Notes under the pieces: generated by a model
Told to the model about the DNA's origin: nothing
Seen by the model: the letters and a program-made list of their open reading frames with translations, nothing else
Databases searched by the model: none
Assembly (NCBI RefSeq): GCF_044647545.1
Contig: NZ_CP172818.1
DNA: 64,000 nucleotides
Direction: 5' to 3' (one strand)
Source of the DNA: Escherichia coli
Lineage (GTDB): Bacteria; Pseudomonadota; Gammaproteobacteria; Enterobacterales; Enterobacteriaceae
Position numbers and translations under genes: made by a program
Part shown: piece after piece, positions 1 to 31,659 of the stretch
How the letters are laid out: each line of letters begins with the position of its first letter
Numbering within the stretch: position 1 is the first letter of the stretch

Positions 1-1871
1 GAATTTTATCAGCGTTCGATTAACGAACCGGAGCAGTTCTGGGCCGAGCAGGCCGTGTATTGACTGGCAGACGCCCTTTACGCAAACGCTCGATCACAGC
101 AATCCGCCGTTTGCCCGTTGGTTTTGTGAAGGCTGAACCAACTTGTGCACAACGCTATCGACCGCTGGCTGGAGAAACAGCCAGAGGCGCTGGCGCTGAT
201 TGCCGTCTCTTCGGAAACAGAAGAAGAGCGCACCTTTACCTTTCGTCAGCTGCATGACGAAGTGAACGCGGTGGCCTCAATGTTGCGTTCATTGGGCGTG
301 CAGCGTGGCGATCGGGTGCTGGTGTATATGCCGATGATTGCCGAAGCGCATATTACTCTGCTGGCCTGCGCGCGCATTGGCGCTATTCACTCGGTGGTGT
401 TTGGGGGATTTGCCTCGCACAGCGTGGCGGCGCGAATTGATGATGCTAAACCGGTGCTGATTGTCTCGGCTGATGCCGGAGCGCGCGGTGGCAAAATCAT
501 TCCCTATAAAAAATTGCTCGACGATGCGATAAGTCAGGCGCAGCACCAGCCACGCCATGTTTTGCTGGTGGATCGCGGGCTGGCGAAAATGGCGCGCGTC
601 AGCGGGCGGGATGTCGATTTCGCGTCGTTGCGCCATCAACACATCGGCGCGCGGGTACCGGTGGCGTGGCTGGAATCCAACGAAACCTCCTGCATTCTCT
701 ACACCTCCGGCACGACCGGCAAACCTAAAGGCGTGCAGCGTGACGTCGGCGGATATGCGGTGGCGCTGGCGACCTCGATGGACACCATTTTTGGCGGCAA
801 AGCGGGCGGTGTGTTCCTTTGTGCTTCGGATATCGGCTGGGTGGTGGGGCGTTCTATATCGTCTACGCGCCGCTGCTGGCGGGGATGGCGACTATCGTTT
901 ACGAAGGATTACCGACCTGGCCGGACTGCGGCGTGTGGTGGAAAATCGTCGAGAAATATCAGGTTAGCCGGATGTTCTCAGCGCCGACCGCCATTCGCGT
1001 GCTGAAAAAATTCCCTACCGCTGAAATTCGCAAACACGATCTCTCGTCGCTGGAAGTGCTCTATCTGGCTGGAGAACCGCTGGACGAGCCGACCGCCAGT
1101 TGGGTGAGCAATACGCTGGATGTGCCGGTGATCGACAACTACTGGCAGACCGAATCCGGCTGGCCGATTATGGCGATTGCTCGCGGTCTGGACGACAGGC
1201 CGACGCGTCTGGGAAGCCCCGGTGTGCCGATGTATGGCTATAACGTGCAGTTGCTTAATGAAGTCACCGGCGAACCGTGTGGCGTCAACGAGAAAGGGAT
1301 GCTGGTGGTGGAAGGGCCGCTGCCGCCGGGGTGTATTCAGACCATCTGGGGCGACGACGGCCGCTTTGTGAAGACTTACTGGTCGCTGTTTTCCCGCCCG
1401 GTGTACGCCACCTTTGACTGGGGCATCCGTGACGCTGACGGTTATCACTTTATTCTCGGGCGCACTGACGATGTGATTAACGTTGCCGGGCATCGGCTGG
1501 GGACGCGCGAGATTGAAGAGAGTATCTCCAGCCATCCGGGCGTTGCCGAAGTGGCGGTGGTTGGGGTGAAAGATGCGCTGAAAGGGCAGGTGGCGGTGGC
1601 GTTTGTCATTCCGAAAGAGAGCGACAGTCTGGAAGATCGTGATGTGGCGCACTCGCAAGAGAAGGCGATTATGGCGCTGGTGGACAGCCAGATTGGCAAC
1701 TTTGGCCGCCCGGCGCACGTCTGGTTTGTCTCGCAATTGCCAAAAACGCGATCCGGAAAAATGCTGCGCCGCACGATCCAGGCGATTTGCGAAGGACGCG
1801 ATCCTGGAGATCTGACGACCATTGATGATCCTGCGTCGTTGGATCAGATCCGCCAGGCGATGGAAGAGTAG
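1..1871 (+). pseudogene. prpE: propionyl-CoA synthetase (AMP-forming acyl-CoA synthetase), 5'-truncated by window edge and frame-disrupted
   Basis: Translation is acyl-CoA synthetase-like (YTSGTTGKPKG motif ~696-731; C-terminal SGKMLRR). Frame is broken: stop at 61-63 in entry frame, TGA at 134-136 in the continuing frame, frame changes near 146-148 and 850-854; ORF fragments 145-1005 and 819-1871 overlap in different frames. Confidence 0.8.
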
Positions 1872-1875
1872 GTTA

Positions 1876-2050
1876 TTGTCGGATGCGTCGCGCGGCGCAT
1901 CCGGCACTGGTGCCGATGCCTGATGCGACGCTGACGCGTCTTATCATGCCTACGGACCTGAACCGTAGGTCGGATAAGGCGCTCGCGCCGCATCCGACAC
2001 CATGCTCAGATGCCTGATGCGACGCTGACGCGTCTTATCAGGCCTACCCA
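1876..2050. repeat. cluster of REP-like palindromic units (BIME-like)
   Basis: Repeated GCCGGATGCG...CGCATCCGAC / GCCTGATGCGACGCTGACGCGTCTTATCAGGCCTAC palindromes typical of enterobacterial REP elements. Confidence 0.6.
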
Positions 2051-2117
2051 CTGTTTTTACACCGATAATTTTTCCCCCACCTTTTTGCACTCATTCATAT
2101 AAAAAATATATTTCCCC

Positions 2118-2133
2118 ACGAAAACGATTGCTT
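2118..2133 (+). promoter_or_regulatory. PurR-box-like operator upstream of codB
   Basis: acgaaaacgattgctt resembles the PurR operator consensus (aCGcAAaCGtTTtCnT); position fits the codBA promoter. Recollection-based. Confidence 0.4.
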
Positions 2134-2199
2134 TTTATCTTCAGATGAATAGAATGCGGCGGATTTTTTGGGTTTCAAACAGCAAAAAGGGGGAATTTC

Positions 2200-3455
2200 G
2201 TGTCGCAAGATAACAACTTTAGCCAGGGGCCAGTCCCGCAGTCGGCGCGGAAAGGGGTATTGGCATTGACGTTCGTCATGCTGGGATTAACCTTCTTTTC
2301 CGCCAGTATGTGGACCGGCGGCACTCTGGAACCGGTCTTAGCTATCATCAATTCTTTCCTCGCAGTTCTCATCGGTAATCTTCTCCTCGGTATTTACACT
2401 TGATTTCTCGGTTACATTGGCGCAAACCGGCCTGACCACTCATCTTCTTGCTCGCTTCTGGTTTGGTGTTAAAGGCTCATGGCTGCCTTCACTGCTACTG
2501 GGCGGAACTCAGGTTGGCTGGTTTGGCGTCGGTGTGGCGATGTTTGCCATTTCGGTGGGTAAGGCAACCGGGCTGGATATTAATTTGCTGATTGCCGTTT
2601 CCGGTTTACTGATGACCGTCACCGTCTTTTTTGGCATTTGGCGCTGACGGTTCTTTCGGTGATTGCGGTTCCGGCTATCGCCTGCCTGGGCGGTTATTCC
2701 GTGTGGCTGGCTGTTAACGGCATGGGCGGCCTGGACGCATTAAAAGCGGTCGTTCCCGCACAACCGTTAATTTCAATCTCGCGCTGGCGCTGGTTGTGGT
2801 CATTTTCTGGTGGGTACGCTCGCCGCTGGCGCCTTTTGTCCGGTTTGGTCGCAATGCCAAACTGGCGGTGCTGGTGGCGATGGTGGCCTTTTTCCTCGGC
2901 AACTGGTTGATGTTTATTTTCGGTGCAGCGGGCGCTGCGGCACTGCGCATGGCGGATATCTCTGATGTGATGATTGCTCAGGGCCTGCTGCTGCCTGCGA
3001 TTGTGGTGCTGGGGCTGAATATCTGGACCACCAACGATAACGCACTCTATGCGTCGGGTTTAGGTTTCGCCAACATTACCGGGATGTCGAGCAAAACCCT
3101 TTCGGTAATCAACGGTATTATCGGTACGGTCTGCGCATTATGGCTGTATAACAATTTTGTCGGCTGGTTGACCTTCCTTTCGGCAGCTATTCCTCCAGTG
3201 GGTGGCGTGATCATCGCCGACTATCTGATGAACCGTCGCCGCTATGAGCACTTTGCGACCACGCGTATGATGAGTGTCAATTGGGTGGCGATTCTGGCGG
3301 TCGCCTTGGGGATTGCTGCAGGCCACTGGTTACCGGGAATTGTTCCGGTCAACGCGGTATTAGGTGGCGCGCTGAGCTATCTGATCCTTAACCCGATTTT
3401 GAATCGTAAAACGACAGCAGCAATGACGCATGTGGAGGCTAACAGTGTCGAATAA
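2200..3455 (+). pseudogene. codB: cytosine permease, frame-disrupted
   Basis: GTG start at 2200 with upstream SD; N-terminus MSQDNNFSQGPVPQSARKG. Gene is split into four ORF fragments (2200-2403, 2417-2647, 2638-2910, 2796-3455): premature TGA 2401-2403 and frame changes near 2404-2430, ~2636 and ~2770. Confidence 0.8.
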
Positions 3456-4728
3456 CGCTTTACAAACAATTATTAACGCCCGGTTACCAGGCGAAGAGGG
3501 GCTGTGGCAGATTCATCTGCAGGACGGAAAAATCAGCGCCATTGATGCGCAATCCGGCGTGATGCCCATAACTGAAAACAGCCTGGATGCCGAACAAGGT
3601 TTAGTTATACCGCCGTTTGTGGAGCCACATATTCACCTGGACACCACGCAAACCGCCGGACAACCGAACTGGAATCAGTCCGGCACGCTGTTTGAAGGCA
3701 TTGAACGCTGGGCCGAGCGCAAAGCGTTATTAACCCATGACGATGTGAAACAACGCGCATGGCAAACGCTGAAATGGCAGATTGCCAACGGCATTCAGCA
3801 TGTGCGTACCCATGTCGATGTTTCGGATGCAACGCTAACTGCGCTGAAAGCAATGCTGGAAGTGAAGCAGGAAGTCGCGCCGTGGATTGATCTGCAAATC
3901 GTCGCCTTCCCTCAGGAAGGGATTTTGTCGTATCCCAACGGTGAAGCGTTGCTGGAAGAGGCGTTACGCTTAGGGGCAGATGTAGTGGGGGCGATTCCGC
4001 ATTTTGAATTTACCCGTGAATACGGCGTGGAGTCGCTGCATAAAACCTTCGCCCTGGCGCAAAAATACGACCGTCTCATCGACGTTCACTGTGATGAGAT
4101 CGATGACGAGCAGTCGCGCTTTGTCGAAACCGTTGCTGCCCTGGCGCACCATGAAGGCATGGGCGCGCGAGTCACCGCCAGCCACACCACGGCAATGCAC
4201 TCCTATAACGGGGCGTATACCTCACGCCTGTTCCGCTTGCTGAAAATGTCCGGTATTAACTTTGTCGCCAACCCGCTGGTCAATATTCATCTGCAAGGAC
4301 GTTTCGATACGTATCCAAAACGTCGCGGCATCACGCGCGTTAAAGAGATGCTGGAGTCCGGCATTAACGTCTGCTTTGGTCACGATGATGTCTTCGATCC
4401 GTGGTATCCGCTGGGAACGGCGAATATGCTGCAAGTGCTGCATATGGGGCTGCATGTTTGCCAGTTGATGGGCTACGGGCAGATTAACGATGGCCTGAAT
4501 TTAATCACCCACCACAGCGCAAGGACGTTGAATTTGCAGGATTACGGCATTGCCGCCGGAAACAGCGCCAACCTGATTATCCTGCCGGCTGAAAATGGGT
4601 TTGATGCGCTGCGCCGTCAGGTTCCGGTACGTTATTCGGTACGTGGCGGCAAGGTGATTGCCAGCACACAACCGGCACAAACCACCGTATATCTGGAGCA
4701 GCCAGAAGCCATCGATTACAAACGTTGA
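3445..4728 (+). CDS. codA: cytosine deaminase
   Basis: GTG start at 3445 ([14 protein letters not shown]...), 427 aa, 11-bp overlap with codB end; amidohydrolase motifs (HIHLD). Confidence 0.9.
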
Positions 4729-4750: not shown

Positions 4751-5150
4751 AGTTTATGCCGGATGCGGCGTGAACGCCTTATCCGGCCTACGTAGAGCAC
4801 TGAACTCGTAGGCCTGATAAGCGTAGCGCATCAGGCAATTCCAGCCGCTGATCTGTGTCAGCGGCTACCGTGATTCATTCCCGCCAACAACCGCGCATTC
4901 CTCCAACGCCATGTGCAAAAATGCCTTCGCAGCGGCTGTCTGCCAGCTGTAGTTTATGCCGGATGCGGCGTGAACGCCTTATCCGGCCTACGTAGAGCAC
5001 TGAACTCGTAGGCCTGATAAGCGTAGCGCATCAGGCAATTCCAGCCGCAGACCTGTGTCAGCGGCTACCGTGATTCATTTCCGCCAACAACCGCGCATTT
5101 ATCCAACGCCATGTGCAAAAATGCCTTCGCGGCGGCTGTCTGCCAGCTAT
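4751..5150. repeat. 200-bp direct tandem duplication (two copies, ~96% identical) containing REP-like palindrome and the 3' end of cynR
   Basis: Copy 1 at 4751-4950 and copy 2 at 4951-5150 align base-for-base with ~7 mismatches; copy 2 overlaps the last ~86 bp of cynR. Confidence 0.8.
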
Positions 5151-5964
5151 TTTTCCGCCGCAACAAAACCGCCGTTCTCTCCAGTAGTGGCGGGGCAAGA
5201 GAAATAGCTTTAAGCCCGTCATGTTGTGTGGCAATCGCTGCTGGTAACAATGTGGAAAGGGAAGTGCGGCGAATCAGCTCCAGAACCGCGCTAATTGAGT
5301 TCGCCTCAATGACCACCTGTGGATGTAGCCCCGCTTTCTCGCAGTAGTGGTCAATTTGCTCTCTGGTGGCAAATTCCGCGCTGAGCAGGACCAGTTTTTC
5401 ATCATGCAAGCGACTCAACGCCACCTGTTCATGGACGGCCAGCGGATGATGTTGCGCCACGACTAACGCTAAACTTTCTGTCAGTAAAGGAATTGCCTCC
5501 AGCTCCGGCGAATGCACAGGCGCGAAGGCAATCCCAACGTCCAACTCGTCGCGGCAAAGCATATCCTCGATTTTCTCCTGCGACATTTCCTGTAGCTGGA
5601 GCGTGATGCTGGGATAGCGCGCATAGAAATCCGCCATTAAGGGGCCGATAAAGTAGCTCGTAAAGGTGGGGGTGACGGCGATACGCAGCGATCCTCGCGT
5701 CAGATCGGCAACATCATGAATCGCCCGTTTACCCGCCCCCAGTTCCTGTAACGCCCGGCTGGCGTACTGTCGCCAGACTTCTCCTGCATCAGTGAGACGA
5801 ATCGTTCGCCCGCTACGGTCAAACAGCGGCACGCCTAAACTCTCCTCTAACTGGCGAATCTGCTGGGAAAGCGCAGGTTGGGAGACGTGCAACGCACTGG
5901 CGGCACGGGTGAAGCTGCCATGTTCAGCCACGGCAAGAAAATAATTGATATGTCGAGAGAGCAT
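5065..5964 (-). CDS. cynR: LysR-type transcriptional regulator of the cyn operon
   Basis: 299-aa ORF starting [40 protein letters not shown] (LysR HTH), divergent from cynT. Confidence 0.9.
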
Positions 5965-6072
5965 TCGCAACCTATAAGTAAATCCAATGGAACTCATCAT
6001 AAATGAGACTTTTACCTTATGACAATCGGCGAGTAGTCTGCCTCTCATTCCAGAGACAGACAGAGGTTAACG

Positions 6073-6732
6073 GTGAAAGAGATTATTGATGGATTCCTTA
6101 AATTCCAGCGCGAGGCATTTCCGAAGCGGGAAGCCTTGTTTAAACAGCTGGCGACACAGCAAAGCCCGCGCACACTTTTTATCTCCTGCTCCGACAGCCG
6201 TCTGGTCCCTGAGCTGGTGACGCAACGTGAGCCTGGCGATCTGTTCGTTATTCGCAACGCGGGCAATATCGTCCCTTCCTACGGGCCGGAACCCGGTGGC
6301 GTTTCTGCTTCGGTGGAGTATGCCGTCGCTGCGCTTCGGGTATCTGACATTGTGATTTGTGGTCATTCCAACTGTGGCGCGATGACCGCCATTGCCAGCT
6401 GTCAGTGCATGGACCATATGCCTGCCGTCTCCCACTGGCTGCGTTATGCCGATTCAGCCCGCGTCGTTAATGAGGCGCGCCCGCATTCCGATTTACCGTC
6501 AAAAGCTGCGGCGATGGTACGTGAAAACGTCATTGCTCAGTTGGCTAATTTGCAAACTCATCCATCGGTGCGCCTGGCGCTCGAAGAGGGGCGGATCGCC
6601 CTGCACGGCTGGGTCTACGACATTGAAAGCGGCAGCATCGCAGCTTTTGACGGCGCAACCCGCCAGTTTGTGCCACTGGCCGCTAATCCTCGCGTTTGTG
6701 CCATACCGCTACGCCAACCGACCGCAGCGTAA
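6073..6732 (+). CDS. cynT: carbonic anhydrase (beta class)
   Basis: 219-aa ORF, GTG start; beta-carbonic-anhydrase motifs (CSDSR, HSNCG). Confidence 0.9.
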
Positions 6733-6744
6733 CCTTATTTTTAA

Positions 6745-7233
<489 letters not shown>

Positions 7234-7265
7234 CAGCCATGCGCAACCATCAAAAGACGTTCACG

Positions 7266-8420
7266 ATGCTGCTGGTACTGGTGCTGATTGGTCTTAATAT
7301 GCGACCACTGCTCACCTCCGTCGGGCCACTGCTACCGCAATTGCGCCAGGCGAGCGGAATGAGCTTTAGCGTGGCTGCCCTGTTGACCGCTCTGCCGGTG
7401 GTTACCATGGGCGGGCTGGCGCTGGCCGGAAGCTGGCTTCATCAGCATGTCAGCGAACGTCGCAGTGTCGCCATCAGTCTGTTGCTGATTGCCGTCGGTG
7501 CATTGATGCGTGAGCTTTACCCGCAAAGTGCGCTGCTGCTTAGCAGCGCACTGCTTGGTGGGGTGGGGATCGGCATCATTCAGGCGGTGATGCCTTCGGT
7601 GATTAAACGGCGGTTTCAGCAGCGCACGCCACTGGTGATGGGGCTGTGGTCCGCGGCTCTGATGGGCGGCGGTGGGCTTGGTGCCGCCATAACGCCCTGG
7701 TTAGTTCAACATAGCGAAACCTGGTATCAAACACTCGCCTGGTGGGCGCTGCCTGCCGTTGTTGCGCTCTTTGCCTGGTGGTGGCAAAGCGCCCGCGAGG
7801 TCGCCTCTTCCCACAAGACAACAACCACTCCGGTTCGCGTGGTATTCACTCCCCGCGCGTGGACGCTGGGTGTTTACTTCGGTCTGATTAACGGCGGTTA
7901 CGCCAGCCTGATTGCCTGGTTACCCGCTTTCTATATTGAGATTGGTGCCAGCGCGCAGTACAGCGGTTCCTTACTGGCATTGATGACGCTTGGGCAAGCC
8001 GCAGGAGCTTTGCTGATGCCTGCTATGGCTCGCCATCAGGATCGGCGCAAACTGTTAATGCTGGCGCTGGTGTTACAACTGGTGGGGTTCTGCGGCTTTA
8101 TCTGGCTGCCGATGCAATTGCCGGTATTGTGGGCGATGGTGTGTGGGTTAGGTCTGGGCGGCGCGTTTCCGCTCTGTTTGCTGCTGGCGCTCGATCACTC
8201 TGTGCAACCGGCTATTGCTGGCAAGCTGGTGGCGTTTATGCAGGGAATCGGTTTTATCATCGCCGGGCTTGCCCCGTGGTTTTCTGGCGTGCTGCGTAGT
8301 ATCAGCGGCAATTACCTGATGGACTGGGCATTTCATGCGCTGTGCGTCGTTGGGCTGATGATCATAACCCTGCGTTTTGCACCAGTACGTTTTCCGCAGC
8401 TGTGGGTCAAAGAGGCATGA
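7266..8420 (+). CDS. cynX: MFS cyanate transporter
   Basis: Hydrophobic multi-TM ORF; 384 aa from ATG 7266 (an upstream in-frame ATG at 7239 would give 393 aa). Confidence 0.85.
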   Translation: MLLVLVLIGLNMRPLLTSVGPLLPQLRQASGMSFSVAALLTALPVVTMGGLALAGSWLHQHVSERRSVAISLLLIAVGALMRELYPQSALLLSSALLGGVGIGIIQAVMPSVIKRRFQQRTPLVMGLWSAALMGGGGLGAAITPWLVQHSETWYQTLAWWALPAVVALFAWWWQSAREVASSHKTTTTPVRVVFTPRAWTLGVYFGLINGGYASLIAWLPAFYIEIGASAQYSGSLLALMTLGQAAGALLMPAMARHQDRRKLLMLALVLQLVGFCGFIWLPMQLPVLWAMVCGLGLGGAFPLCLLLALDHSVQPAIAGKLVAFMQGIGFIIAGLAPWFSGVLRSISGNYLMDWAFHALCVVGLMIITLRFAPVRFPQLWVKEA

Positions 8421-26411: not shown

Positions 26412-26687
26412 CTATTTAAGATAGGCACGAACCAGTTCAATAGTGTCGTCAACGGATTGGCTGACTTCGCGGCTGTAGCAGTCATTTCGGTCAAACGTTT
26501 CCCGGATATGGCTTTCAAGCACTTCTGCCATCAGCCCGTTAGCCGCGCCCCGAACGGCAGCGATCTGTTGGAGTATGGCACGGCATTCGGCATCACCCTC
26601 CAGCGACCGTTCCAGAGCATCAATTTGCCCCCGAATACGACGAACTCGAGTAAGGACCTTTTTCTTCTCTTCCGGAGTACTGGGCAT
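26412..26687 (-). CDS. frmR: formaldehyde-responsive repressor (CsoR/RcnR family)
   Basis: 91 aa from [30 protein letters not shown]...; first gene of frmRAB. Confidence 0.9.
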
Positions 26688-26713
26688 TTCGCACCTCATC
26701 ATCTGCACGCAAT

Positions 26714-26762
26714 ATACTATAGGGGGGTATGCTATATGTCAATGCATACCCCCCTATAGTAT
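26714..26762. promoter_or_regulatory. frmR operator/promoter: 19-bp perfect inverted repeat with G6/C6 tracts
   Basis: atactataggggggtatgc (26714-26732) and gcatacccccctatagtat (26744-26762) lie immediately upstream of the frmR start. Confidence 0.7.
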
Positions 26763-26871
26763 ATAACACTGGAGAATAAAATTTATCCGGTGAATGTAGT
26801 CGGATAACAAAAAGGAAAGAGGGGCCTAATCGACAGGGAAGGCCGCCCCGGATAGCGGGCGGCAGAAGCAA

Positions 26872-27645
26872 TCAGAATTTCCAGGTCAGATGGGCTGCAA
26901 GTTGCAGACCGTTATAATCATCGGTTGGGGTGTCGTACCACACTTTACCTGCCGTCAGCCCGAGATTAAGTTGCTCAGTCAGCGGTTGAATACGTTGCAG
27001 ACTGACGCTCTTCATGCTGCCGTAGCGTGTTTCTGGCGTCCAGTCATAGGTGTAAGCGCCTGTTCCGCGGCTTAGCCATAGTTGCGTATAACCAGTGCCG
27101 CGCGGGTCATTCAGACGCACGGAAATCATATTGCTGTAACTACCACCTGCATCGCTGGAGTCATAATGGGTATAGCGGTAGCTGGAGATCACCGGGCCAG
27201 TATAGAGGGATACGCCGCCTTGCCAGGCATCGACTTCGACATCATCGTAATATTTAGTGTAGCGATAACCGGTCGTGAAAAGCGTTTTTGGCAACAGGGC
27301 CAGGTTAATATCCTGACGAAAATCCTGGCGGGCAAAGACCGGCGTATTATCCGCAAAGGCAATACCCGTTCGGGTTGTCAGCCAGTTATTCCATTTATAC
27401 CAGACCGCACCCTGACCGCGAGTGGCATTGAAATGTTCAGTTTCATAATCACGACGCCCCTGGGAAAGATTAAAAAGCAGCGTTGCGTTTTCAACTTTCG
27501 CCACCAGTTCAGCATACGCTAAATTACGATTGCCATGATCGCCAGAATAATCGGTAAAATCGTAGCCCGCGGTAATGGAAGTTAACCCGGCATAAGCGGG
27601 CAATGTGCTAAAAATGGCCGCCGCTAATAACGTCCGTTTTATCAT
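26872..27645 (-). CDS. yaiO: outer-membrane beta-barrel protein
   Basis: 257-aa ORF with signal peptide (MIKRTLLAAAIFSTLPAYA) and C-terminal aromatic residue (…HLTWKF). Confidence 0.85.
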   Translation of the reverse strand: MIKRTLLAAAIFSTLPAYAGLTSITAGYDFTDYSGDHGNRNLAYAELVAKVENATLLFNLSQGRRDYETEHFNATRGQGAVWYKWNNWLTTRTGIAFADNTPVFARQDFRQDINLALLPKTLFTTGYRYTKYYDDVEVDAWQGGVSLYTGPVISSYRYTHYDSSDAGGSYSNMISVRLNDPRGTGYTQLWLSRGTGAYTYDWTPETRYGSMKSVSLQRIQPLTEQLNLGLTAGKVWYDTPTDDYNGLQLAAHLTWKF

Positions 27646-27646
27646 T

Positions 27647-28203
27647 TTAATCTCCTGTACGGATAAGTTCTTGTCGGAGTGAATAAGTTCCGGTAGGTAA
27701 ATTACGTTCTACAATCACGCGCGGGCCAAGTTGCGTGTTCGGGGAAATAATTCGCCCAGGCAAAATAATAACTTGTACGCCAAGGCGTGAACGCTGTCCG
27801 ATATAACAACCTAATTTATCGCATCCGGTAGCGATAATTCCCTCTGGAGTTCGAACAGACACGGGCTGTTCATCCAGACGATGATTACTGGTACGTACTT
27901 GTGCGCCCAAATATGCCTGGTTTGCGACTACCGAGTCGGCAATAAAACATTGCGGACCAATCGTTGCTTCCGCTTCAATAACCGCATTTTTAATTTCGGT
28001 GGCGAAACCAATTTTTACGCCATTGCTGATTATTGTGCCAGGACGAATAAACGAAATTACCTATCAGGCAGTTTGCGCCAATCACTACCGGACCCTGAAT
28101 AACGGCACCGTGACAAATACGGGTATTCGCGCCGATAACAACTTCACCTGCAGTTTCATCAATAATTACCTGGTCTGCAATCTGAATATTTTTCTCTTTA
28201 ACA
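27647..28203 (-). pseudogene. yaiX: hexapeptide-repeat acyltransferase, frameshifted
   Basis: Hexapeptide repeats (VIGANTRICHGAVIQGPVVIGANCLIGN) continue in another frame (IRPGTIISNGVKIGFA...) with the switch near 28040-28060; no IS element at the break. Confidence 0.7.
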
Positions 28204-29400
28204 TTAAGCTTCAGAAAGTTTTTCAGTTCCTGTGACAGAAGGTTGGGAATAAGCGGTTGACGCTTCCACCAGTGCGGAATAGCGGGTGGGTTTGTCGCGC
28301 TGAGGTTCGCGTCCAGTAAAAAAGGCAATAAGTCCATAAATAATCCAGATGGCATAAGCTAATAATACATACACAACGGAAAGCGGCGCTAAAGGCACCA
28401 ACAACCAGCAACGATGAAACCAGGCGCTAAAAGCACCAATAACACAAACTACGCCGACCCAGATAAGCGGAAACATTGCCAACACCACACCATGCGGCCC
28501 GGTGGTGATGAATTCATTAAACCAGGTAGTGAGATAAATCCCAACGCCATAAAGCACAACCAACAGCATAGGAAATATACTGAAGATACCGAAGCGGCTA
28601 AATAAAAGTCTTTTATGCAGGCGCATACAGACCGCGTAGCCCACAATCCAACGCCGCCAGCGACGCCATTCCTCACGCGGGCTGTTGCATTCCTGTGGGT
28701 ATACGATGCAGCGATTCGCCTGCCGAATACGATAGCCGTTTGCCACCAATGTCCAGGTGAGATCAAGGTCTTCGACTTTAGTACGATCAGAGAAACCGAA
28801 CTTACGCAATACATCAGTACGGAACATCCCGCAGGCACCGCTGATAATAAACGGTGCGCCGCCCAGGAGCTGCTGTAGCGTGCGCTTCATAACAATCATC
28901 GGCAACTTTACGGTCGCGCGGATGTGCGGTAACAGCCCCGCGCCTTTCAACGCAGTAGAGGGAATGCCGCCTACGGCATCAGCACCGCGCTCAATTTCTG
29001 CCAGCATATAGCCCATTCCGTCTTGATCGGGCGGAACATAGGTGTCGGCATCACTTAAAAAAACCTGGTCGCAGGTGGCGTAATTGAGGCCATTCATCAG
29101 CGCACCACCTTTACCGGTATTTTTTTGCGTGACGGCAACAAAGCGGTCGCCCCATTTGCGTTTGACTTCCGCCATGACCGCTTCGGTATTGTCCGTGGAG
29201 CCGTCGTTAACGCAAATTACCCGGCAAAAATAAGGGTTACGCAGCAGATTATCCAGTGACTGCGCCAGACACGGGCCTTCGTTATAAGCAGGTATAATGG
29301 CGTCAATACAGCCTTTTTTTTGGCTGGGCTTACGCCTTAACGTACTCAGGAACCATAGCAATATTGCTACGGCCATACAGATAAATATCCAGGTTTTCAT
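28204..29400 (-). CDS. yaiP: membrane glycosyltransferase, family 2
   Basis: 398-aa ORF with N-terminal TM, GT-A signatures (CVNDGSTDNT, SDADTYV) and C-terminal TM helices. Confidence 0.85.
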   Translation of the reverse strand: MKTWIFICMAVAILLWFLSTLRRKPSQKKGCIDAIIPAYNEGPCLAQSLDNLLRNPYFCRVICVNDGSTDNTEAVMAEVKRKWGDRFVAVTQKNTGKGGALMNGLNYATCDQVFLSDADTYVPPDQDGMGYMLAEIERGADAVGGIPSTALKGAGLLPHIRATVKLPMIVMKRTLQQLLGGAPFIISGACGMFRTDVLRKFGFSDRTKVEDLDLTWTLVANGYRIRQANRCIVYPQECNSPREEWRRWRRWIVGYAVCMRLHKRLLFSRFGIFSIFPMLLVVLYGVGIYLTTWFNEFITTGPHGVVLAMFPLIWVGVVCVIGAFSAWFHRCWLLVPLAPLSVVYVLLAYAIWIIYGLIAFFTGREPQRDKPTRYSALVEASTAYSQPSVTGTEKLSEA

Positions 29401-29409
29401 GCAATTTGC

Positions 29410-30081
29410 TCAAAGAATCATTTTATGAATTACAAAGCCTTCACCCAGATCGCTATTGACCTGTTGCCCGCGAAATTGTGCAACTGCACGCAGGCGATCA
29501 TGACGCATATAATCGCGTCGTTCCTGGCTTTTATGTTTTTTTAATGCAGCAAGTTTGACTGTGAAATATTCTTCTTTAACGGATTCAAAAACCTGAGGCA
29601 TAAATGAAAGCCAGGTACTCGGGGTTTCGTAGCCGAGAATTTGTGGAATAGTTCGGCAGGCAACCATTGAGGCTTGATAGACTGCAAGATGATCCTGATG
29701 GCGGTCAGCATCATGCATGGTGTATACACGAATGATTTCTACATCAGACGGAATTTGATTTTTAATGATGTCTTCCAGGGCGGAAATCATATCATTGAGC
29801 TGTAAATGAGCGCGGGTGTCAGCAAAATTAAGATGAATAGTTTGGTGGCACCCTAATATCTTTAGGGCGTTGCGCGATTCTTCATGGCGATCGATTATTC
29901 CATCTGTGCCAGAGTTGCCGGTAGTCATCACCACGGCTGCGATATAAATTCCTTTTTGCGCAAGACGAGCAAGCGATGCGCCACAGCCTAATTCTATATC
30001 GTCAGGATGTGCGCCAATAGCAAGGATACCCTTTCTTTTATTTGCCGAAGAAAGGAGGGCTGAATCTAAAACCTTATCCAC
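29410..30081 (-). CDS. yaiS: PIG-L/LmbE-family deacetylase
   Basis: 223-aa ORF with AHPDDIELGCG motif near the N-terminus; a shorter 185-aa version (start at 29967) would lack this motif. Confidence 0.75.
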   Translation of the reverse strand: MDKVLDSALLSSANKRKGILAIGAHPDDIELGCGASLARLAQKGIYIAAVVMTTGNSGTDGIIDRHEESRNALKILGCHQTIHLNFADTRAHLQLNDMISALEDIIKNQIPSDVEIIRVYTMHDADRHQDHLAVYQASMVACRTIPQILGYETPSTWLSFMPQVFESVKEEYFTVKLAALKKHKSQERRDYMRHDRLRAVAQFRGQQVNSDLGEGFVIHKMIL

Positions 30082-30696
30082 TTAATGACACTCCATTTTA
30101 TTTATTATACTACAAGCACAACGATGCACTCAGAGACGTAATCTCTGGCGCAGCCAGATGCTAATTTATAAGTGTTAAATGTTGCTAATAATTGAAAAGC
30201 CAGGGCTTTCAGATCCGGGGGGGCGACTGGTTAATGTTTTTATGCAATTCATATGTTAAGTGTTTGTATGTTTGGTATGTATAGTTATTTTGTTTTATAC
30301 ATTGTATTTAGATGTGATTTAGTTTGTCAATTAATTGCATTTAAAAAATATGTTCTGTGAACAAGTATTGTTTATATACATTATGTGAATGTAATATGCG
30401 AGTGATTGAGAATGATACAGTGATATATATAATGCGAATATAATAGTTTTATTATATGTATTGATATTGATAGAAATAATGAAGTAATAAATCTCGTAAT
30501 GTGGTTGTTTATGCATCACTAAAATGAAGTGTAGTAATTTTCCCAATTGTTAGAACGGAGTAATTGCATATTTAATCTTTCCTTTGCCGTTTTTTTGCTA
30601 AGAATAAAATCATCTGTGCGATAACGACTAATTCTTTTAATGAATGTTTTTATTCCTGAATACTGCTCCCATAACAAGACAGGGGAGCAGACAATC

Positions 30697-31659
30697 ATGG
30701 CAATTTCATCGCGTAACACACTTCTTGCCGCACTGGCATTCATCGCTTTTCAGGCACAGGCGGTGAACGTCACCGTGGCGTATCAAACCTCAGCCGAACC
30801 GGCGAAAGTGGCTCAGGCCGACAACACCTTTGCTAAAGAAAGCGGAGCAACCGTGGACTGGCGTAAGTTTGACAGCGGAGCCAGCATCGTGCGGGCGCTG
30901 GCTTCAGGCGACGTGCAAATCGGCAACCTCGGTTCCAGCCCGTTAGCGGTTGCAACCAGCCAACAGGTGCCGATTGAAGTCTTCTTGCTGGCGTCAAAAC
31001 TGGGTAACTCCGAAGCGCTGGTGGTAAAGAAAACTATCAGTAAACCGGAAGACTTGATTGGTAAACGCATCGCCGTACCGTTTATCTCCACCACCCACTA
31101 CAGCCTGCTGGCGGCGCTGAAACACTGGGGTATTAAACCCGGGCAAGTGGAGATTGTGAACCTGCAGCCGCCCGCGATTATCGCCGCATGGCAGCGGGGA
31201 GACATTGATGGTGCTTATGTCTGGGCACCGGCGGTTAACGCCATGGAAAAAGATGGCAAGGTGCTGACCGATTCTGAACAGGTCGGGCAGTGGGGCGCGC
31301 CGACACTGGACGTCTGGGTCGTGCGGAAAGATTTTGCCGAGAAACATCCAGAGGTCGTGAAAGCGTTCGCCAAAAGCGCCATCGATGCTCAGCAACCGTA
31401 CATTGCTAACCCAGACGTGTGGCTGAAACAGCCGGAAAACATCAGCAAACTGGCGCGTTTAAGCGGCGTGCCTGAAGGTGACGTTCCGGGGCTGGTGAAG
31501 GGGAATACCTATCTGACGCAGCAGCAACAAACGGCAGAACTGACCGGACCGGTGAATAAAGCGATCATCGATACCGCGCAGTTTTTGAAAGATCAGGGCA
31601 AAGTCCCTGCCGTGGCGAATGATTACAGCCAGTACGTGACCTCGCGCTTCGTGCAATAA
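30697..31659 (+). CDS. tauA: taurine ABC transporter periplasmic binding protein
   Basis: 320 aa from ATG 30697 with signal peptide (MAISSRNTLLAALAFIAFQAQA). Confidence 0.9.
   Translation: MAISSRNTLLAALAFIAFQAQAVNVTVAYQTSAEPAKVAQADNTFAKESGATVDWRKFDSGASIVRALASGDVQIGNLGSSPLAVATSQQVPIEVFLLASKLGNSEALVVKKTISKPEDLIGKRIAVPFISTTHYSLLAALKHWGIKPGQVEIVNLQPPAIIAAWQRGDIDGAYVWAPAVNAMEKDGKVLTDSEQVGQWGAPTLDVWVVRKDFAEKHPEVVKAFAKSAIDAQQPYIANPDVWLKQPENISKLARLSGVPEGDVPGLVKGNTYLTQQQQTAELTGPVNKAIIDTAQFLKDQGKVPAVANDYSQYVTSRFVQ

Follow-up and report, generated by a model that had tools for sequence, protein, structure and literature searches.

A review of the LmbE-like superfamily gives its metal site as HxD1D2 plus a distant histidine, with D2 and both histidines as metal ligands and D1 as the general base; 97–148 residues separate the second and third ligands (PMC4101496). 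Two groups of solved structures in this superfamily stand closest to YaiS, the Escherichia coli protein analyzed here. The bacillithiol GlcNAc-malate deacetylase BshB/BC1534 (PDB accession numbers 2IXD, 6P2T/6ULL) resembles YaiS in its LmbE-like fold, with TM scores of 0.76–0.78, and in its HxDD plus H site. The C-terminal strand of BshB is needed for activity, the enzyme being inactive without the short β8 strand (PMC4101496). However, the sequence identity between BshB and YaiS is only 19–21%, and the yaiS gene lies in a cassette encoding a GT2 glycosyltransferase, an acetyltransferase and an outer-membrane barrel, not among bsh genes. E. coli is not known to produce bacillithiol. Of the solved structures, the archaeal diacetylchitobiose deacetylase Dac (3WE7, 3WL4, 8BGN/8BGO) matches YaiS best by sequence, the C-terminal elements HKSQ...G...EGF included, and superimposes with a TM score of 0.76. 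Nonetheless, identity to YaiS is 22–25%, Dac is ~45 residues longer, and it functions in a chitin-catabolic pathway, whereas no chitin genes are located beside yaiS.

At the level of gene organization, the PNAG systems pgaABCD and icaADBC follow a similar logic, combining a GT2 synthase-like enzyme, a deacetylase and an outer-membrane barrel, and the clumping reported from K-12 genetics adds to the likeness. The components themselves differ. YaiP falls far under the PgaC cut-off (100 versus 422 bits), YaiS is of the cytoplasmic LmbE type whereas PgaB is a periplasmic CE4 enzyme, YaiO is unrelated to PgaA, and the yai cassette contains a hexapeptide acetyltransferase that is extra relative to Pga/Ica.

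The nearest described relative is K-12 YaiS itself (b0364, entry YAIS_ECOLI, 185 residues). The two forms have locus, GTG codon, Shine-Dalgarno sequence and the HPDD and HQDH motifs in common, and residues 1–185 of K-12 YaiS differ from those of the protein described here at I117M only. However, the K-12 gene has TAG at codon 186 and its product is without the 38 C-terminal residues, whereas codon 186 is CAG in the window (64,000 nucleotides of contig NZ_CP172818.1, assembly GCF_044647545.1) and the reading frame continues to 223 residues. A 223-residue PIG-L protein of the WP_000362029.1 type, known from non-K-12 E. coli, has equal length and start, with zero or one residue differing. A literature search on yaiS turned up no work on where its translation begins or on the activity of its product.

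The features of the gene are as follows.

29410..30081, minus strand: yaiS coding sequence of 223 codons and a TGA stop (29410–29412), an intact PIG-L/LmbE-family deacetylase gene according to the open reading frame list and PF02585
30079..30081, minus strand: GTG start codon, the sole in-frame ATG, GTG or TTG ahead of codon 50
30091..30094, minus strand: Shine-Dalgarno core GGAG, 9 nt 5' of the GTG
30082..30096, minus strand: four-codon mini-ORF ATG GAG TGT CAT TAA, enclosing the GGAG, its TAA in frame with, and abutting, the yaiS GTG
29998..30009, minus strand: H-P-D-D, codons 25–28, of which H25 and D28 are predicted to bind the metal and D27 to act as the general base
29926..29928, minus strand: internal ATG, Met52 of MTTGNSG, the alternative start put forward by a first-pass annotation; product 172 residues
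29689..29700, minus strand: H-Q-D-H, codons 128–131, with H131 the predicted third metal ligand and H128 a predicted oxyanion-stabilizing histidine
29524..29526, minus strand: codon 186, CAG (Gln), which is TAG in K-12 by sequence comparison
29413..29523, minus strand: codons 187–223, comprising a C-terminal helix (194–206) and strand (213–221) absent from the K-12 protein

Predicted catalytic site and fold of YaiS

The 223-residue YaiS sequence matched the PF02585 profile with 89.1 bits and an E value of 4e-25, residues 20–141 covering profile positions 1–128 of 129. The score exceeds the curated cut-off of 28.2 bits, which places YaiS in the PIG-L/LmbE-like superfamily by sequence. As the first-pass annotation had noted, an HPDD motif lies within the first 40 codons of the reading frame; it occupies codons 25–28 as part of an A-H-P-D-D segment (residues 24–28). 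The profile match opens at residue 20, before HPDD, and the motif is therefore inside the conserved domain. Truncation from the N-terminus reduced the score to 55.6 bits when the sequence was read from codon 39 and to 47.6 bits when it was read from Met52, the latter product matching profile positions 53–128 only.

Conservation was assessed in an alignment of 40 full-length YaiS homologues with identities down to 47%. The N-terminal residues G23, A24, H25, P26, D27, D28, E30, C33 and G34 are invariant, as are H128 and H131. In diacetylchitobiose deacetylase, the sequence aligned with residues 128–131 is HpdH. D28 and H131 are separated by a spacer of 102 residues, and YaiS thus carries the HxD1D2 plus H arrangement of the superfamily. 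When the solved structures were searched with phmmer, the best match was to archaeal Dac, spanning YaiS residues 3–218 with an E value of 4e-12. By extension of the superfamily mechanism (PMC4101496), H25, D28 and H131 would hold the metal, D27 would activate the metal-bound water and H128 would stabilize the oxyanion, such that YaiS would take the N-acetyl group off a GlcNAc-containing substrate.

An AlphaFold2 model computed on the alignment has a pLDDT of 92.5 and a pTM of 0.89. In the model, residues 1–10 are disordered, strand β1 comprises residues 16–23, and the HPDD loop leads into a helix at residues 28–42; the ~15 residues ahead of β1 are poorly conserved. Foldseek comparison of the model resulted in TM scores of 0.76–0.79 and a probability of 1.00 to 2IXD, 1UAN (TT1542), 6ULL and 8BGO, and the matches also include the diacetylchitobiose deacetylase 4XM2. 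The predicted structure adopts a Rossmann-like α/β fold followed by a C-terminal β/α subdomain. Taken with the sequence matches, this indicates that the reading frame at 29410..30081 on the minus strand is very probably the intact, full-length yaiS gene, and that it encodes a predicted 223-residue cytoplasmic, metal-dependent (probably Zn2+) LmbE-like/PIG-L de-N-acetylase.

Assignment to a named member of the superfamily was rejected in each case considered. YaiS scored 80.4 bits against the BshB1 equivalog TIGR04001 (cut-off 182.5), 20.4 bits against the MshB equivalog TIGR03445 (cut-off 224.35) and 20.9 bits against the Mca equivalog TIGR03446 (cut-off 277.15). It was below the cut-off for BshB2 as well, and so for every named equivalog compared.

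Translation start and upstream region of yaiS

Read from GTG 30081, the product has the N-terminus V/M-DKVLDSALLSSANKRKGILAIGAHPDDIELGCG. Codons 1–70 contain four in-frame ATG, GTG or TTG codons, namely GTG1, GTG50, GTG51 and ATG52. The first-pass annotation had called for a check for a Shine-Dalgarno sequence upstream of 30081, and the GGAG found there, with its 9-nt spacing, forms the strongest duplex with the 3' end of 16S rRNA among the candidates (-7.9 kcal/mol). The anti-Shine-Dalgarno duplex of GTG50 amounts to -5.3 kcal/mol, but its AAGGA is ~15 nt distant, that of GTG51 to -1.4 kcal/mol, and that of ATG52 to -4.9 kcal/mol with a GGTG that directly abuts the ATG, leaving essentially no spacer. 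Starts at GTG50, GTG51 or Met52 are rejected on account of these weaker or badly spaced sequences and the loss of the conserved N-terminal block. The GGAG is identical in K-12, M172-1, CX15, 120899, ampC_0069 and Nissle. The 40 nt 5' of the GTG are identical across the five A/B1-type strains read and have one base changed in the divergent Nissle. The GTG start is also the one annotated in K-12 and other strains.

The in-frame TAA directly before the GTG means that the reading frame cannot extend further 5' in this strain. The upstream ATG at 30096 is accordingly ruled out here as the yaiS start, as it meets this TAA after four codons. In Nissle the TAA of the mini-ORF is replaced by AAA (1704..1721 in the Nissle locus), and PGAP starts a pseudogene-flagged coding sequence at the ATG, which would make the yaiS frame 227 codons long (MECHK-VDKV...). 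An upstream-ATG start is possible only in lineages such as this one.

Comparison with homologues leaves some latitude at the extreme N-terminus. YaiS has its MDKVL N-terminus in common with the E. fergusonii and Y. enterocolitica homologues, and distant homologues begin 6–12 residues ahead of the ILAIGAHPDD strand, that of E. lignolyticus with an ATG preceded by a GGAAG Shine-Dalgarno sequence. In the Y. enterocolitica orthologue, the position homologous to the yaiS GTG is occupied by TTG, and an ATG at codon 8 is preceded by a better Shine-Dalgarno sequence. Since residues 1–10 are predicted to be disordered and are unconserved beyond close relatives, homology cannot fix the exact first residue. 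GTG 30081 was assigned as the start because it is the only start codon that retains the invariant N-terminal block, and on the sequence evidence yaiS translation is predicted to begin there.

The first-pass annotation had placed an internal start at MTTGNSG, position 29967, giving a protein of 185 residues. The codon at 29967 is codon 39, CGT (Arg), which rules out a start at that position, and the methionine of MTTGNSG is codon 52 (ATG, 29928..29926), from which a product of 172 residues would follow. The contrast that was drawn between a long form with the motif and a 185-residue form without it is false, as the 185-residue K-12 form keeps HPDD. As 185 residues is the length of K-12 YaiS, the difference between long and short forms is at the C-terminus and not at the motif, and no N-terminally shortened YaiS of 185 residues exists. 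The earlier observation is thus partly confirmed, its reading frame and motif being right and the coordinates and length of its alternative wrong. Its interpretation is partly supported: the preference for the longer frame as the functional reading agrees with an HPDD that is integral to the conserved fold and invariant, whereas the premise concerning the 185-residue form is false.

The region between yaiS and tauA (30082..30639) is 558 nt long with 28–34% G+C and contains divergent promoter-like sites, one of which faces yaiS:

30301..30330, minus strand: promoter-like TTGACA-18-TACAAT, matching 11 of 12 consensus positions in a consensus scan, ~210 nt before the GTG

This position puts both candidate yaiS starts, GTG 30081 and Met52, on one transcript. 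The same hexamers were described as the constitutive sigma-70 promoter of yaiS, together with an H-NS site (Shimada et al., PMC3946193), and the intergenic region upstream of yaiS is among the reported promoter islands (PMC3661553). Expression of yaiS is probably low, and with H-NS bound at its promoter region yaiS may go unexpressed in laboratory culture. A terminator scan of 29200..30700 found none, and an Rfam scan of 26500..31000 returned no RNA family.

The C-terminus, the K-12 form and the antisense frame

The yaiS annotation of the K-12 genome NZ_CP043189 is 558 nt long and begins at this GTG (locus position 1720, equivalent to window position 30081), and codon 186 is TAG at locus 2275..2277. 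Translated past this codon, the K-12 gene reads ...ALKKHKS, stop, ERRDYMRHDRLRAVAQFRGQQVNSDLGEGFVIHKMIL, stop. The 185-residue sequence, which starts MDKVLD, is that of the entry YAIS_ECOLI; it matches PF02585 with 89.7 bits over residues 20–141 and retains HPDD. K-12 YaiS is therefore short because of a Q186* nonsense change (CAG to TAG) and not because of a later start.

The segment that K-12 has lost is well conserved. S185, Q186, Y191, A201, F203, R204, G205, Q207, E214 and F216 are invariant in the 40 homologues, the block-mean pLDDT is ~96–97 through residue 220 and 82 for residues 221–223, and the segment aligns to the C-terminus of the archaeal Dac structures. From this, and from the effect of the β8 deletion in BshB, we infer that the 185-residue K-12 protein would be impaired. 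The reference K-12 entry describes a truncated protein without a conserved structural element, and as this element is missing, knock-out and overexpression data obtained in K-12 may not reflect wild-type YaiS. The Keio yaiS mutant was scored thermosensitive (PMC5828445).

The alleles of codon 186 were counted in 5,426 complete genomes with 32-mer probes, for which any mismatch abolishes the megablast seed. The TAG allele occurred in 355 of the 5,426 genomes, and 12 sampled TAG rows were mostly named laboratory K-12 strains or derivatives, with chromosomes of 4.55–4.69 Mb. The CAG allele with identical flanks occurred in 2,221. The yaiS region was matched by 4,277 genomes, and the ~1,700 remaining carriers have diverged flanks, as does Nissle, where yaiS is open at codon 186. 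Judged by these counts, the Q186 nonsense change appears to be lineage-specific. At least 1000 contigs in public collections encode the exact 223-residue protein of the window, under the names "PIG-L deacetylase family protein" or "LmbE-like protein". In RefSeq, strain CX15 has a 672-nt coding sequence with the same start (WP_000362029.1), whose product differs from the window protein at I117M only. The full-length gene is thus an ordinary, already annotated member of a well-known enzyme family: some RefSeq annotations give the 223-residue reading with the GTG start, and both family and motif are textbook knowledge.

The 3' end of yaiS also overlaps a small reading frame on the opposite strand:

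29425..29544, plus strand: ykiC-like frame of 39 codons, Pfam PF23686 (YkiC), codon-aligned antisense to and nested in the 3' end of yaiS

Its product differs from K-12 YkiC by S15P, and ykiC is listed among the K-12 small-protein genes in an annotation table (PMC6001520). The same antisense frame is open in the Nissle, Y. enterocolitica and E. lignolyticus homologues, as would be expected, since stops in this frame require TTA, CTA or TCA codons in the sense frame. In four of four genomes with a ykiC-like coding sequence, PGAP renders the intact yaiS as a 121-codon (in Nissle, 142-codon) pseudogene with "missing C-terminus". CX15 has no ykiC-like coding sequence annotated and has the full 223-residue yaiS. 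A PIG-L coding sequence covers codon 186 in 2 of 12 CAG-allele genomes drawn as an even-step sample. The demotion of intact yaiS looks like a systematic annotation artefact, and is of concern to curators, many RefSeq genomes being affected by the reduction to a 121-codon pseudogene.

Two alternative readings of the coding sequence were weighed against the 223-residue frame. Translation might begin at the internal Met52 (ATG 29928), producing a protein of 172 residues and leaving the 51 upstream codons as an untranslated leader. Compared with GTG, ATG is the stronger start codon, the GGTG just upstream pairs at the -4.9 kcal/mol given above, and one public entry of 173 residues, P0030, begins MTTG. 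However, those 51 codons hold the most conserved block of the family, G23–G34, whose conservation at the protein level would be surprising in an untranslated leader. The shortened product would lack β1, the predicted general base D27 and, of three predicted metal ligands, H25 and D28, and its Pfam score drops from 89 to 48 bits; the GGTG has essentially no spacer, whereas GTG 30081 has the stronger Shine-Dalgarno sequence at 9 nt. A start at Met52 is therefore highly improbable. The second reading regards ykiC as the functional gene of the 3' part, with the yaiS frame past codon ~121 or 185 being non-coding. The small gene has its K-12 listing (PMC6001520) and a Pfam family of its own, PGAP annotates ykiC while calling yaiS a 121-codon partial pseudogene in the four genomes examined, and in 10 of the 12 sampled CAG-allele genomes the small frame alone is annotated over codon 186. 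Yet the C-terminus of YaiS is conserved down to 47% identity with invariant residues, is confidently folded in the model and aligns to solved structures. The openness of the antisense frame is not independent evidence, given that it is codon-aligned and equally open in distant homologues, and both genes could coexist. We consider a non-coding yaiS 3' end very unlikely, and the 223-residue frame from GTG 30081 is retained in what follows.

The yai cassette and its possible role

Three genes follow yaiS on the same strand.

28204..29400, minus strand: yaiP, GT2 membrane glycosyltransferase (Pfam Glycos_transf_2), with its start 9 nt past the yaiS stop
27647..28226, minus strand: hexapeptide-repeat acetyltransferase, the yaiX orthologue, frameshifted (Pfam Hexapep on the intact orthologue)
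26872..27645, minus strand: yaiO, outer-membrane beta-barrel, the last gene of the cassette (PF19413, and TIGR04390 with 183.9 bits)

The best NCBIfam match of yaiP was PgaC_IcaA, with 100.6 bits against a cut-off of 422, and the acetyltransferase resembles the C-terminal domain of GlmU. The co-oriented order PIG-L, GT2, acetyltransferase and YaiO barrel (26872..30081, minus strand) is also present in M172-1. The same four genes occur in the same order in Y. enterocolitica (81% identity, locus 1050..4258) and in E. lignolyticus (52% identity, locus 5001..8191). As the order is kept across genera in unrelated neighbourhoods, the four genes behave as a cassette.

Compared with the intact gene of M172-1, the acetyltransferase gene of the window lacks 2 bp between 28056 and 28055 and carries one substitution, and it is split into two reading frames. 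A 33-mer across the lesion was found in 0 of 5,426 complete E. coli genomes, which points to a private mutation or a sequencing error. With this downstream gene frameshifted, the cassette of this strain may be non-functional. K-12 carries other lesions in the cassette, the Q186 nonsense codon in yaiS and an IS2 in yaiX.

Experimental information on the cassette comes from K-12. According to a meeting abstract summarized in the EcoGene 3.0 article (PMC3531124), repair of the K-12 yaiX' pseudogene led to vegetative clumping, for which yaiP was also required. Because the result was obtained in K-12 with its truncated yaiS, it carries no weight either way on whether clumping requires YaiS. The protein may be dispensable for this phenotype, or the 185-residue form may keep activity.

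Judging from the gene context, the probable task of the cassette is to make or modify a surface glycan based on GlcNAc and promoting the clumping of cells. We infer that a precursor or product of the cassette that contains GlcNAc is deacetylated by YaiS. A more specific proposal, offered tentatively as possible but doubtful, is that the cassette constitutes an uncharacterized pathway of the synthase type, whose product would be a surface glycan based on GlcNAc that promotes aggregation. In such a pathway, the N-acylation of the sugar would be edited by the cytoplasmic LmbE-type YaiS together with the GlmU-like acetyltransferase, either ahead of polymerization and export via YaiO or in the course of these steps. 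If this is true, the chemistry of the cassette would differ from the periplasmic CE4 deacetylation of Pga/Ica. K-12 would then be a multiple mutant of the pathway, in yaiS (Q186 nonsense) and in yaiX (IS2), explaining how the pathway escaped study, and the K-12 YaiS entry would describe a damaged protein.

The remaining alternative concerns the gene's use and not its structure, namely that yaiS is intact but belongs to a decaying, silent cassette in this strain, where YaiS would be rarely made or useless. The frameshift of the acetyltransferase by the 2-bp deletion is consistent with decay, as are the independent lesions elsewhere (the nonsense codon and IS2 in K-12, an IS1 in ampC_0069) and the many truncated yaiS entries in public clusters; the H-NS site and promoter island upstream are consistent with silence. 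On the other hand, yaiS, yaiP and yaiO all have their full length in the window, YaiS occurs very commonly in exactly this form (at least 1000 contigs), and the cassette is conserved across genera. The frameshift 33-mer, found in none of the 5,426 genomes, may reflect a sequencing error. A decaying and silent cassette is therefore regarded as unlikely, if a good deal less so than either alternative reading of the coding sequence, and an intact yaiS within a conserved cassette is the preferred reading.

Among the genomes compared, ampC_0069 was the only one 100% identical to the window over 29300..30300. Its IS1 is located between yaiS and yaiP (locus 2425..3122), is absent from the window, and represents another independent disruption of the cassette.
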